A stretch of 64,000 bases of DNA from Myxococcota bacterium (GCA_050618055.1 JBNLVK010000172.1:14644-78643); one strand, 5' to 3'. Positions 9,858 to 14,359 are shown, counted from the first letter of the stretch. Numbers and translations: made by a program. The notes: generated from the sequence alone by a model not told the origin.

Positions 9858-11237
9858 TCAGGCCTTCTCGGCCGCCGCGCGACGCGCCAGCCTGCGCCGG
9901 TAGAGCGTCTTGCGATCGATGCCCAGGATGCCCGCGGCCTTCACCTTGTTGCCGCCGGTGAGCTCGAGCACCTCTTCGATGTAGCGGTCGGTCAGCTCCT
10001 GGAGCGTCATGCGCGTGCGGGCCAGCGGGGCCAGGTCGCGCGGATCCGCCGACCCCCCCGCGCCGGCGCCGCCGGCGCCGGGCCGGTCGGGCAGGTCGTC
10101 CAGGTCGATCTCGCGCGAGTCGGACAGCGCCAGCGCGCGCTCGATCACGTTCTCGAGCTCGCGGGCGTTGCCCTTCCAGGGCAGCGAGCACAGGTGGTCC
10201 ATGGCCGCGGGGGTGAGCACGTGGGGCTCGCCCTGGGAGTGCTTCTTCAGGAAGGCCTCGACCAGCGCCGGCACGTCCTCGGGGCGATCGCCCAGCGGCG
10301 GAATGTGGATCGGGATCACGTTCAGCCGGTAGTAGAGATCCTCGCGGAAGGTGCCGTCCTCGATCTCCTTGAGCAGGTCCTTGTTGGTCGCCGCGATGAT
10401 GCGCACGTCGACCTTCACCGACTTGTTGCCGCCGACGGGACGGATCTCCCGATCCTGGAGCACGCGCAGCAGCTTGGCCTGGAGGCCGGGACCCATGTCG
10501 CCCACCTCGTCCAGGAAGAGCGTTCCGCCGTCCGCCTCCTCGAACAGGCCGCGCTTCGACGAGTGGGCGCCGGTGAACGCACCGCGCACGTGGCCGAAGA
10601 GCTCGCTCTCCAGCAGGCCCTCGGGAATGGCCGTGCAGTTGATCGGGATGAAGGGCTGGTCGGGGCGCGATCCGTGGAAGTGCAGGGTGCGCGCCACCAC
10701 CTCCTTGCCGGTTCCGCTCTGGCCCGTGATCAGCACGTTGCTGCGGTTGTGGGACACGCGCCGGATCAGGGCGAAGATCTCGCGCATGGCCGCGCTCTCG
10801 CCGATCAGGTCGCCGAGCGAGCTGGTGCGGTCGACGGCGCGGCGCAGCCGGCGGTTCTCCTGCTCGAGTGCGCGGCGCTCCATGGCCCGCTCGACCGTGA
10901 GCAGCACGGCCTCGGGCTCGAAGGGCTTGGTCACGTAGTCGAAGGCGCCGGCCCGCATGCCCTCGACCGCCGTCTCGATGCTGCCGAAGGCGGTCATCAG
11001 CACCACCGGCGTCTCCGGGCGCAGGCTGCGCAGCTCGCCCAGCAGCTCGATGCCGGAGCGGCCGGGCATCTTGATGTCGGTGAGCACCGCGTCCATCTCG
11101 TGCTCGCCGGCCACCGCCAGGGCCTCCTCGGCCGACGACGCCGACAGCACGTCGTAGGCCTCGTCCTGGAAGAGCGACTCCAGCATCTGCCGCATCGCGG
11201 CGTCGTCGTCGACGATCAGAACGGTTCGATTCGCCAT
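9858..11237 (-). CDS. sigma-54-dependent response regulator (NtrC family: REC + AAA+ + Fis-type HTH)
   Basis: 459 aa. Motifs LIVDDD...DIKMPG, GQSGTGKE, GAFTGA and ESELFGH. C-terminal HTH segment GNKVKAAGILGIDRKTLYRR. Confidence 0.92.
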   Translation of the reverse strand: MANRTVLIVDDDAAMRQMLESLFQDEAYDVLSASSAEEALAVAGEHEMDAVLTDIKMPGRSGIELLGELRSLRPETPVVLMTAFGSIETAVEGMRAGAFDYVTKPFEPEAVLLTVERAMERRALEQENRRLRRAVDRTSSLGDLIGESAAMREIFALIRRVSHNRSNVLITGQSGTGKEVVARTLHFHGSRPDQPFIPINCTAIPEGLLESELFGHVRGAFTGAHSSKRGLFEEADGGTLFLDEVGDMGPGLQAKLLRVLQDREIRPVGGNKSVKVDVRIIAATNKDLLKEIEDGTFREDLYYRLNVIPIHIPPLGDRPEDVPALVEAFLKKHSQGEPHVLTPAAMDHLCSLPWKGNARELENVIERALALSDSREIDLDDLPDRPGAGGAGAGGSADPRDLAPLARTRMTLQELTDRYIEEVLELTGGNKVKAAGILGIDRKTLYRRRLARRAAAEKA

Positions 11238-11250
11238 ACCCGCCTGTCAG

Positions 11251-11266
11251 AGCACGGAACGTGCCA
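11251..11266 (-). promoter_or_regulatory. sigma-54 (-24/-12) promoter-like motif upstream of the response-regulator gene
   Basis: The minus strand reads TGGCACGTTCCGTGCT, against the consensus TGGCACG-N4-TTGCW. GG/GC spacing is correct and there is one mismatch in the -12 region. It lies only about 15 nt from the ATG. Confidence 0.4.
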
Positions 11267-11357
11267 GTGCGTGGCGATCCCTGCGCGCCCGCGATGCACT
11301 TCGTGGGGCCAAATGGTACAAAATGCCCCAGGGGCCGGGGCCGTCTGCCCCCAGCGG

Positions 11358-12602
11358 TCAGCTGGCCAGCGGCAGGTGGACGCGGAACTCGGTGCCGTCG
11401 CCCTCTTCGCTGGCGGCCTCGATCACGCCGCCGTGGTCGCCCACGATGCCCTTGCACACCATCAGGCCCAGCCCGTTGCCCTCGCCGGCGGGCTTGGTGG
11501 TGAAGAAGGGGTCGAAGATCTGCGACAGGTCCTGGGGGCGGATGCCGGTGCCCGTGTCCGCCACCGTGATCTCGGCGCCGCCGTCCTTCTCGCACAGCGT
11601 GACGCGCAGCTCGCCGCCGTCCGGCATGGCGTCGGCCGCGTTCAGGAAGAGGTTCAGCAGCAGCTGCTGGAGTCGCTCCGGATCGCCCGACACGCTGGCC
11701 ACGTCGTCGATCGACTTCACGACCTCGATGTGTCGCCGGGCGAGCTTCTCGGAGACGAACGACAGCGTGCGCTCGACCAGCGGACCCAGCAGCAGCGGCT
11801 GGCGTCGCGACGGACGCGGCCGCGCCATGTTCAGCAGCACCTGGATGATCCGCGAGATGCGTCCGATCTGCTCCTGGATGGTCTGGAGCCGCCAGGTGGC
11901 GTCCTCGCCCGTGACCTCGGCCTCGAGCCTCTTCGCGTGGCCCTGGATGACGCCCATCGGTGTTCCGATCTCGTGGGCGAGGCCGGCGATCAGCGTCGCG
12001 ATCGAGGCCAGCTCCTCGGCGGCGCGGGCCTGGATGGTGGTGCGGCGCAGCGTCTCGCTCTGGTCGTCGTACTTGCGCGACAGGCTGCGGCTCTGCTCCG
12101 AGAGCTCCTCGGTCAGGTACTCGAGCCGCTCCTCGCTGGCGGTGATGTACTCCTCCATCGCCAGCTGCGCGTCGAACATCAGGAGCCTCTGCAACGCGGT
12201 CACGATGCGCGCGCTCTCTTCCTGGCCGTCGCCGGCGAACGACTCGCAGATGATCGGGACCAGCAGCGAGAAGTAGAGGGCGTAGGCGCCCAGGTACCAG
12301 CGCGGCTCGAGGCCGATCCGCTGGTGCACGCGCCCGATCCGGCGCCGATCCTCCTCCCATTCCTTGTCGAAGCGGGGATGCGAGAGGCTCAGCAGGTATT
12401 CGCGCTGCTTGCCGAGCAGGCGCTCCTTGACCAGCGGATCCGACAGCAGGGCCCGCGTCTCGCCGAAGGCGAGCAGGTGCCGGTAGAACGCGGCGACGAA
12501 GTCGTCGGCGTGCTTCTCGAGCACCGGCTCCAGACGCCGGAGCCGCTCGACCTCGTGGTCGTCCAGCTTCAGGTATTCGAGCCGGACCGACAGATCCTTC
12601 AT
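11358..12602 (-). CDS. globin-coupled sensor histidine kinase
   Basis: 414 aa. The N-terminus is a globin-coupled-sensor domain (FVAAFYRHL; IGRVHQRIGLEPRWYLGAY). It is followed by HisKA (LAHEIGTP) and HATPase boxes (LNLFLNAADAM, DTGTGI, GNGLGL). Confidence 0.88.
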   Translation of the reverse strand: MKDLSVRLEYLKLDDHEVERLRRLEPVLEKHADDFVAAFYRHLLAFGETRALLSDPLVKERLLGKQREYLLSLSHPRFDKEWEEDRRRIGRVHQRIGLEPRWYLGAYALYFSLLVPIICESFAGDGQEESARIVTALQRLLMFDAQLAMEEYITASEERLEYLTEELSEQSRSLSRKYDDQSETLRRTTIQARAAEELASIATLIAGLAHEIGTPMGVIQGHAKRLEAEVTGEDATWRLQTIQEQIGRISRIIQVLLNMARPRPSRRQPLLLGPLVERTLSFVSEKLARRHIEVVKSIDDVASVSGDPERLQQLLLNLFLNAADAMPDGGELRVTLCEKDGGAEITVADTGTGIRPQDLSQIFDPFFTTKPAGEGNGLGLMVCKGIVGDHGGVIEAASEEGDGTEFRVHLPLAS

Positions 12603-12647
12603 GCTGACAACGTCCGCCCCGGCCGCCCGGATGTCAAGGAAGGAGGA

Positions 12648-13364: not shown

Positions 13365-13391
13365 GGCTACCTCCGGTTCTTGCGGTGTCCG

Positions 13392-13407
13392 GTGCAATGC
13401 TTTGCAC
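13392..13407. promoter_or_regulatory. perfect inverted repeat GTGCAA-N4-TTGCAC overlapping the -12 region of the sigma-54 motif
   Basis: Read directly from the sequence: gtgcaatgctttgcac. It sits in the divergent region between the CBS and hemerythrin genes. Confidence 0.3.
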
Positions 13408-13418
13408 GCGGGGTGCCA
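13403..13418 (-). promoter_or_regulatory. sigma-54 (-24/-12) promoter-like motif upstream of the CBS / histidine kinase operon
   Basis: The minus strand reads TGGCACCCCGCGTGCA, with correct GG-N10-GC spacing. The predicted transcription start lies about 28 nt upstream of the CBS ATG, leaving room for the GGAGG RBS. Confidence 0.55.
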
Positions 13419-13481
13419 AGACAAGGGGCCGATCGAGGATTGCCGGGGCTGGGATACCATGGTGACACGGAGGGAGCCCCC

Positions 13482-13934
13482 ATGGAGCCCAGCGAAGTCC
13501 GGCAGAAGGTCCTGAACGACCACCAGGGCCTGAGAGGCCGCCTCGAGGGTGTGGAGCGCCTCGCCCGCGGGGTGGCCGAGGGCGAGAGCGCGCAGGTGGA
13601 AGAGCTGCGTCGCGAGGCGACGGAGCTGCTCCGGGTGCTCACCGCCCACATGTCCTGGGAGGACAGCTACCTGGGTCCGGCGCTGCGCGAGGCCGACGCC
13701 TGGGGACCCGAACGGGTGGCGCGCTTCGACCAGGACCACGTCCAGCAGCGCCGCGAGATCGAGGAGCTGCTGGAAAGACTGTCGGATGGGCGACAGCCCG
13801 CCTCGCCCCTGGCGCGCCGGGTGCTCGAGTGGATCCGCGACCTCTACGCCGACATGCGCGAAGAGGAGGCGGCCTTCCTGGATCCGAACGTGCTGCGCGA
13901 CGACGTGGTGGGGATCGACGTCGAGACCGGCTAG
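13482..13934 (+). CDS. hemerythrin-like (HHE cation-binding) domain protein
   Basis: The internal ATG at 13482 is preceded by ACGGAGGGAG. His/Glu motifs LNDHQGL, AHMSWEDSYL, DQDHVQQRREIEEL and DMREEEAAF. 150 aa. Confidence 0.75.
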   Translation: MEPSEVRQKVLNDHQGLRGRLEGVERLARGVAEGESAQVEELRREATELLRVLTAHMSWEDSYLGPALREADAWGPERVARFDQDHVQQRREIEELLERLSDGRQPASPLARRVLEWIRDLYADMREEEAAFLDPNVLRDDVVGIDVETG

Positions 13935-14359
13935 CGCTCCGCGTCGGTCGTCTCGATCACCTGCGCCATGACCGATTCCTCGAGCTTCTCGTGGTCGCGA
14001 AGCTCGCGGCGGAGCGCGGCCAGCGCGTCGACCAGGGCGTCGGAGGCGGAGGCGCGCGTGACGAGGCCGTACACGCCGTCCAGCAGCGCCGCGTGGTCGC
14101 GTTCGAGCCGGGCCAGGTCGGCGCGCACCGACTCGGCCAGGCCGTGGACGGCGGGGAAGACGACGCCCTCCTCCAGGTCGAAGTGGGAGCGCAGCGCGTC
14201 GCCGAAGCGGTCGAGCCAGCGCTCGATCTCGGCCGGGCTTCCGCCCGCGATCGCACCGTCGAGCCGGTCCGCGATCTCCCGCAGCTGCCGGTGCTGCTCC
14301 TCCATGCGGTGGAGCGCCCGATCCAGCCGGTGGCGCAGACCGGTCAACATGCCTTCCAT
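13931..14359 (-). CDS. hemerythrin-like (HHE cation-binding) domain protein
   Basis: 142 aa. Motifs MEEQHRQL, RSHFDLEEGVVFP, ERDHAALL and LRDHEKLEE. Confidence 0.75.
   Translation of the reverse strand: MEGMLTGLRHRLDRALHRMEEQHRQLREIADRLDGAIAGGSPAEIERWLDRFGDALRSHFDLEEGVVFPAVHGLAESVRADLARLERDHAALLDGVYGLVTRASASDALVDALAALRRELRDHEKLEESVMAQVIETTDAER

Follow-up and report, generated by a model that had tools for sequence, protein, structure and literature searches.

Does the globin-coupled histidine kinase encoded in a 64,000-nt stretch of a metagenome-assembled genome of a Myxococcota bacterium (the whole stretch is called the window below) pass its signal directly to the sigma-54 activator encoded next to it, or is it one component of a longer phosphorelay? 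Pfam searches on the open reading frames (ORFs) of the window gave significant matches for all five genes of a gas- or redox-sensing module that a sequence-only reading had proposed, i.e., the kinase, an NtrC-type sigma-54 activator, a CBS-pair protein and two hemerythrin-like proteins, with the domains and at the positions which that reading had assigned to them (Table 1). The kinase-activator module is real, conserved and widespread, and we consider it rather probable that it constitutes a direct one-step globin kinase-sigma-54 activator two-component system, a compact analogue of the NmpRSTU system of Myxococcus xanthus that does without the NmpS/NmpT relay.

The globin-coupled kinase and the sigma-54 activator

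From its N-terminus, the kinase carries a sensor globin (approximately residues 1-160), then a long coiled helix, followed by the DHp domain in which His210 lies and finally by the catalytic ATPase domain. Its Protoglobin match (PF11563) spans residues 3-157 and is nearly full length, covering profile positions 4-157 of 158. Two sensor globins with experimentally defined heme residues serve for comparison: that of HemAT-Bs, the aerotaxis transducer of B. subtilis (PDB 1OR4), and that of AfGcHK, the globin-coupled kinase of Anaeromyxobacter sp. Fw109-5 (PDB 5OHE), in which His99 is the proximal heme ligand and Tyr45 the O2-recognising residue (PMC8697598). The two motif contexts that had been taken from the sequence as globin hallmarks proved to be right when aligned with these proteins: FVAAFYRHL holds Tyr40, which aligns with Tyr70 of HemAT and Tyr45 of AfGcHK, and IGRVHQRIGL contains His93, the counterpart of HemAT His123 and AfGcHK His99 in the alignment. 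Among 40 homologues that are 60-79% identical to the kinase, Tyr40, His93 and His210 are invariant, as is the AHEIGTP box containing His210, and Trp102 and Tyr103 are kept at 90% or more. With the sensor-globin fold, the proximal His (F8), the distal Tyr (B10), the DHp His and the ATPase domain all present, the protein fits the class of globin-coupled sensor histidine kinases, and both heme binding and ligand-dependent autophosphorylation are predicted for it.

By similarity, the globin is closest to that of HemAT (57.4 bits, E 1.6e-14, the closest solved sensor globin), followed by GsGCS (41 bits), the RsbR-type globin of 7O0I (35 bits) and AfGcHK (31.6 bits, E 1.3e-6). HemAT differs from the kinase in its output, which is a methyl-accepting chemotaxis domain. 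AfGcHK shares the Protoglobin-HisKA-HATPase_c layout and the two ligand residues with the kinase of the window, but the catalytic cores of the two enzymes belong to different subfamilies, and AfGcHK has a dual-receiver protein as its cognate partner instead of a sigma-54 activator (PMC8697598).

In the AlphaFold model, the globin is all-helical with pLDDT of 82-97 over residues 1-180, and a single long helix (residues 127-227) connects it to the DHp domain; in a fold search with the full kinase model, the kinase core dominated the matches and nothing was added on the globin. It is extremely improbable that the globin is degenerate and heme-free and that the kinase responds to a non-gas input. 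The lineage is known from sequence alone, and Lys65 occupies the position of HemAT Thr95, so the distal pocket differs, which would be in line with such a loss. The invariance of His93 and Tyr40, the retention of Trp102 and Tyr103, the near full-length Pfam match (E 1.1e-33) and the confident globin model all speak against it.

The kinase core is nearest to ZraS (PDB 9JFJ, E 9.7e-41, the best fold match) and to the AtoS model (E 2.7e-57). ZraS and AtoS are kinases that partner sigma-54 activators. The activator of the window carries the receiver aspartate (Asp54), a GAFTGA motif in its AAA+ domain and a C-terminal Fis-type helix-turn-helix (HTH) domain, as seen in the translation and in the Pfam matches, and with these three features it fits the NtrC family of enhancer-binding proteins. 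Its best model is AtoC (E 6e-141). The pairs ZraS-ZraR and AtoS-AtoC of E. coli, both consisting of a kinase and a sigma-54 activator, are thus the best matches for the kinase core and the regulator; they differ from the pair described here in having periplasmic or PAS sensor domains instead of a globin, and the NCBIfam models of AtoS and ZraS match the kinase core, and those of AtoC, NtrC and ZraR the activator, below their equivalog cut-offs.

Conservation of the module in related loci

The kinase is itself listed in GenBank, as a protein of a metagenome-assembled genome of the Myxococcota. Relatives of the kinase were found in 389 stretches from species-representative genomes; the best 80 of the 389 are all metagenome-assembled, and most of these are labelled Myxococcota or Deltaproteobacteria, with a few labelled otherwise. 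When six-frame ORFs of the related loci were searched with the window proteins, the activator was located just downstream of the kinase on the same strand in 59 of the 68 loci with room for it, and approximately 6 kb downstream in several others. Among 51 loci of at least 15 kb, CBS genes lie within 5 kb of the kinase in 37, genes of the Usp (universal stress protein, USP) family in 29 and hemerythrin genes in 17, with all three classes together in 8. The matches are more numerous within 3.5 kb of the kinase than at 6.5-10 kb (77 vs 21 for CBS, 48 vs 8 for Usp and 23 vs 11 for hemerythrin), in a comparison that is biased by many incomplete flanks. In the closest relatives, L002 and L004 (72% identity), much of the arrangement is retained: besides the kinase and the activator with the M48 protease gene after it, there are two hemerythrin genes and several CBS genes, joined in L002 by a Usp gene. 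The sensing module proposed from the sequence, including its conserved heme-ligand residues, is thereby borne out by the adjacency of kinase and activator and by the recurrence of CBS, Usp and hemerythrin genes alongside them.

No other kinase or receiver ORF of at least 80 aa was recognised in positions 6000..19000 of the window, where translations were read by eye and not profile-searched.

Sigma-54 promoters and a candidate enhancer

A sigma-54 motif (TGGCACG-N4-nTGC, one mismatch at most allowed) precedes the activator gene in 50 loci, the window included, against a background of 234 such motifs overall on both strands of 1.31 Mb; the L002 activator promoter has a two-mismatch version. In the window as a whole, the number of sigma-54 motifs is not above chance (16 vs 19.7 expected), and the signal therefore comes from the position of the motif and its conservation across loci, not from its number. 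The distance from the -12 C to the activator start codon is 13-18 nt (mode 14) in 44 of 48 loci. The sigma-54 polymerase normally starts 12 nt past the -12 C, and with this spacing the activator transcript is predicted to be leaderless or nearly so; in the window, its predicted 5' end would fall near 11240, 3 nt ahead of the ATG. A Shine-Dalgarno-like GGAG is present before the activator in many loci; with a near-leaderless transcript, its use would be confined to transcripts that read through from the kinase gene.

In many loci, similar motifs are located before CBS, Usp and hemerythrin genes. The element upstream of the CBS gene of the window has counterparts of the form TGGCACC-N4-nTGC approximately 40 nt before the orthologues of this 238-aa protein in L003, L006, L010, L011, L019, L059 and L068.

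Upstream of the activator promoters, a family palindrome was found by k-mer enrichment and anchored inspection and was then turned into a position weight matrix (PWM); enumeration of exact palindromes upstream of the sigma-54 motifs had given nothing. The consensus, TGTGGCA-N3-TGCCACA, is AT-centred and often present in two copies. At a threshold of 10 bits, the PWM, which was trained on activator promoters alone, finds a site in 46 of the 50 activator promoters (the training set) and, among held-out promoters, in 15 of 35 for CBS, 4 of 9 for Usp and 3 of 16 for hemerythrin, compared to 3.6% of random 200-mers. In the window, the candidate enhancer (upstream activating sequence, UAS) consists of three half-sites with 10 bp spacing, i.e., two overlapping matches to the family palindrome, and lies 46-56 nt upstream of the activator -24 element. 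One further site of at least 10 bits is present in the 64 kb (2111..2131, 10.8 bits), and a sigma-54 element and the palindrome occur together only at the activator's own promoter.

The candidate enhancer overlaps a terminator-like hairpin downstream of the kinase gene; the 3' arm of this hairpin, together with its T-run, is at the same time the left half-site of the best palindrome. The hairpin is the sole such site in 7000..16000, a count that by itself is not above chance, and it may uncouple transcription of the activator from that of the kinase.

In L012, L013, L015, L016 and L027, CGGCACA-N4-TTGC is located approximately 60-145 nt before the hemerythrin gene that lies directly upstream of the kinase. 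It is preceded there by a conserved ctGCCCCgatGTGCCGCA and not by TGTGGCA-N3-TGCCACA, and the hemerythrin gene of this subgroup may be served by a second regulator or by a variant of the site.

Several points weigh against a direct kinase-activator system that also controls the genes around it. A nearly leaderless mRNA is unusual, and the promoter element before the activator may serve a different purpose. As for the palindrome, it comes from the very loci that it describes and represents a predicted binding site only. No enhancer-like site was found by the PWM upstream of the CBS promoter of the window (best score -2.4) or before either of its hemerythrin genes, so that in this genome the CBS and hemerythrin genes would be linked to the activator by adjacency and by their relatives alone. 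The share of hemerythrin promoters with a site is also low in the related loci. Finally, the gene counts near and far from the kinase carry the bias mentioned above, every related locus is derived from a metagenome assembly, and all members of the family are known from their sequences only.

Some of these points would be explained if the kinase-activator pair were real and the CBS and hemerythrin genes were uncoupled bystanders in this genome, which we regard as rather unlikely. In addition to the missing enhancer-like sites, neither hemerythrin gene of the window has a sigma-54 motif, and the scarcity of hemerythrin genes near the kinase in the large loci, as well as of all three classes together, agrees with such a separation. 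The sigma-54-type promoter of the CBS gene is, however, conserved in orthologues, and a gene with such a promoter needs some enhancer-binding protein. Moreover, CBS genes flank the kinase in most of the large loci and a considerable part of their promoters is preceded by the palindrome, the position of the hemerythrin pair is kept in the closest relatives, and genes of both classes are demonstrated NmpR targets in M. xanthus (see below).

Comparison with NmpRSTU and other heme-based systems

The sequence-only reading had stated that no circuit was known which takes a heme-globin signal to sigma-54-dependent transcription in the company of CBS and hemerythrin proteins. This claim did not stand, since NmpRSTU of M. 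xanthus does so. NmpU is a protoglobin kinase and a homologue of AfGcHK, and its H96A variant loses both heme and activity; it phosphorylates NmpS and NmpT but not NmpR, whereas NmpS, when unphosphorylated, phosphorylates the NtrC-like NmpR (PMC6211767, PMC11841059, PMC12753109). NmpR binds GCGCA-N5-TGCGC and activates the sigma-54 promoters of its own operon, which starts with the CBS gene mxan_4236, of nmpU, of a USP gene, of hemN-hemerythrin and of a P-type ATPase with cbb3 oxidase (PMC6211767, PMC11841059, PMC12753109). The idea of the circuit has thus already been published and the components of the present locus are ordinary; the novelty with respect to Nmp lies in the direct one-step wiring. 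A full-text literature search returned only the Nmp papers and no description of a direct pair of globin kinase and sigma-54 activator, which is weak evidence given the incomplete coverage of the search.

The two systems, both from Myxococcota, have much in common. In each, a heme-protoglobin kinase ultimately controls (here, would control) an NtrC-like sigma-54 activator, the activator is autoregulated (known for Nmp, predicted here), a CBS gene heads an operon, and USP and hemerythrin genes are located in or beside the regulon. In contrast to the four-protein relay of Nmp, the present locus has no relay proteins and the globin is fused to a kinase core of the kind that serves NtrC-type regulators. 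The palindrome is also a different one, and, with no NmpS as an inverter, the response may have a different sign.

These similarities raise the possibility that the locus is an NmpRSTU orthologue, i.e., AfGcHK/NmpU with NmpR, working through the same four-protein relay with the other parts encoded elsewhere in the genome. The themes just listed would fit this explanation, and so would the arrangement in an Nmp comparison locus (L084, an Anaeromyxobacter-like contig, ENA ERZ25039545, 1..20702, found by a search with an AfGcHK fragment), in which Usp and CBS genes likewise lie directly upstream of the AfGcHK/Nmp-type globin kinase. The activator of the window is approximately 41% (REC) to 62% (AAA+) identical to the NmpR-like gene of L084, values that are approximate due to frameshifts in that contig; its identity to an unrelated activator of L084 is 44%, little lower than this, and the identity to the NmpR-like gene falls within what any NtrC-family pair would show. 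Genes similar to NmpS or NmpT (a REC-kinase hybrid or a dual-REC protein) are present neither in the cluster nor beside the kinase in 82 related loci. The core of the kinase belongs to a type found together with NtrC-family regulators, while NmpU does not phosphorylate NmpR. The NmpR box, expected in pairs upstream of sigma-54 promoters in a pathway of the Nmp type, is not enriched in the window (172 matches vs 187 expected, a count that says little at 72% G+C) and has no match in the promoter regions 11267..11360 and 13419..13481, and it is a different palindrome that is conserved. With the globin, in addition, closer to HemAT than to AfGcHK, we find an orthologous four-protein relay quite improbable, and the direct pair remains the reading that we prefer.

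Membership of the kinase in the AfGcHK/NmpU orthologous group was considered separately and is supported neither by the globin scores nor by the adjacent genes, among which NmpS/NmpT are lacking. Approximately 8 kb from its globin kinase, L084 also carries genes for a hemerythrin and for a sigma-54 activator without a REC domain, together with a NorB fragment; frameshifts break up many genes of this contig and point to errors in long-read assembly.

One-step transfer from a heme kinase to a response regulator that switches on hypoxia genes is known from FixL-FixJ and DosS/DosT-DosR. The DosR regulon is rich in USP genes. In these systems, unlike in the pair described here, heme is bound by PAS or GAF domains and the regulators are of the sigma-70 type (FixJ/NarL family).

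Proposed mechanism

In the mechanism that we propose, the cytoplasmic heme-globin domain would bind a diatomic gas, most likely O2, or report the redox state of the heme, and its state would control autophosphorylation of His210 in the ZraS/AtoS-type core. The phosphoryl group would then go from His210 to Asp54 of the adjoining activator, which would oligomerise on palindromic enhancers (approximately TGTGGCA-N3-TGCCACA) and open sigma-54 promoters. Positive autoregulation would be the best-supported output in the window, because the promoter of the activator is the only one there with clear enhancer sites, and read-through from this promoter would reach the M48 gene, which is broken here. The promoters of CBS and Usp genes are likely further targets in relatives: the same motif precedes the sigma-54 promoters of these genes and, less often, those of hemerythrin genes, and the regulon would thus resemble the low-oxygen regulon of NmpR.

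The sign of the switch may be considered in the light of AfGcHK, whose six-coordinate forms are active and whose deoxy form is inactive (PMC8697598). If the genes of the hypoxia type (USP, CBS and hemerythrin) are to be activated without an NmpS inverter, the kinase would need to be active in the deoxy state, i.e., the opposite of AfGcHK. It is conceivable, but on balance doubtful, that the system is such an inverted, FixL-like switch in which the activator amplifies itself from a near-leaderless transcript and the CBS protein adds an adenylate or energy input.

Neighbouring genes

In most 2-kb blocks of the window G+C is approximately 70-74%. The module is part of a minus-strand run (15484..7277) of genes for a Na/Ca-exchanger, hemerythrin B, the CBS protein, the kinase, the activator, an M48 protease and a GDSL/SGNH-like protein, and Pfam matches are strong for all of them except the last (Table 1).

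Table 1. Positions of genes and candidate regulatory elements in the window
Feature	Coordinates	Strand	Remarks
Na/Ca-exchanger gene	15484..14462	-	precedes hemerythrin B
Hemerythrin/HHE protein B, 142 aa	13931..14359	-	Pfam Hemerythrin E 5.3e-18
Hemerythrin/HHE protein A, 150 aa	13482..13934	+	Pfam Hemerythrin E 6.6e-12
Sigma-54 -24/-12-like element before CBS gene, TGGCACCCCGCGTGCA	13403..13418	-	-12 C 39 nt before ATG; GGAGG site between
CBS-pair protein, 238 aa	12648..13364	-	Pfam CBS E 2.7e-26, two stretches
Globin-coupled histidine kinase, 414 aa	11358..12602	-	Protoglobin E 1.1e-33, HisKA 2.6e-11, HATPase_c 3.3e-29
Terminator-like hairpin, GCCCCGG-CCC-CTGGGGC then ATTTTG	11325..11341	-	17 nt after kinase stop codon
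Candidate enhancer (UAS), TGGGGCA-ttt-TGTACCA-ttt-GGCCCCA	11302..11332	-	PWM 17.6 and 14.4 bits
Sigma-54 -24/-12 element before activator, TGGCACGTTCCGTGCT	11251..11266	-	-12 C 14 nt before ATG
NtrC-type sigma-54 activator, 459 aa	9858..11237	-	Response_reg E 9.9e-32, Sigma54_activat 4.5e-72, HTH_8 8.7e-11; AAA_lid_14 also matched
M48 (BepA-like) lipoprotein protease gene	8377..9828	-	Pfam M48 E 8.1e-37
Weak GDSL/SGNH-like gene	end at 7277	-	Lipase_GDSL_2 31.9 bits, below the cut-off of 32.9

The CBS gene heads the CBS-kinase run, its 3' end lying 45 bp before the kinase start. Its product has two tandem CBS domains and thus qualifies as a Bateman module, for which binding of an adenosyl ligand is putative. 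Orthologues of equal length (238 aa) are present in L001/L002 and close full-length homologues in approximately 10 other related loci. An acidic linker and a helical C-terminal tail of approximately 100 aa (12648..12950), which has no Pfam match, are further features of the protein.

Hemerythrin gene A diverges from the CBS gene and runs towards hemerythrin gene B, the two convergent genes overlapping by 4 bp; the orthologue of A occupies the equivalent position in L002 and L004. The translation of B has a complete H-HxxxE-H-HxxxE ligand set (H23, H59-E63, H88, H122-E126). In A, D-M-R-E-E replaces the last HxxxE and the final ligand His is absent, and its di-iron site may be altered.

The M48 gene starts 30 nt downstream of the activator. 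The interruption of this gene noted in the sequence-only reading is real and consists of one in-frame TAA at 9012..9010, where the intact 484-aa L002 orthologue (62% identity over 476 columns) has a Tyr; the stop would be either a recent pseudogene mutation or an assembly base-call error. The same reading had pointed to an envelope-remodelling output through the M48 and SGNH genes, which the related loci do not support: a search of 82 loci finds M48 near the kinase (within 3.5 kb) on no more than 4 occasions and as the immediate successor of the activator in just L001/L002 (one contig in two copies) and L004, a place that Usp usually takes, and the copy in the window carries the premature stop.

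The Na/Ca-exchanger gene is not kept beside the kinase in relatives. Approximately 150 nt upstream of it lies a sigma-54-like element, TGGCACGGCACTCGCA (15632..15647, minus strand), with a -12 TCGC like that of E. coli glnAp2. No enhancer-like palindrome was found within 200 nt of this element, and the PWM detects no enhancer-like site at the promoter.

Significance

Oxygen sensing in non-model, mostly uncultured Myxococcota is poorly known, and the sole route that has been studied, NmpRSTU, has the form of a branched relay and does not lend itself to easy dissection. A pair in which the globin kinase addresses its activator directly, if true, would be simpler, having a defined promoter, a candidate binding site and several hundred species-level genomes in which it can be followed. 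While the general picture of heme-based sensing would be unchanged by it, such a pair would be a more tractable model of a globin-driven kinase and of the on/off effect of its ligand, and it would aid the prediction of low-oxygen regulons in metagenomes.

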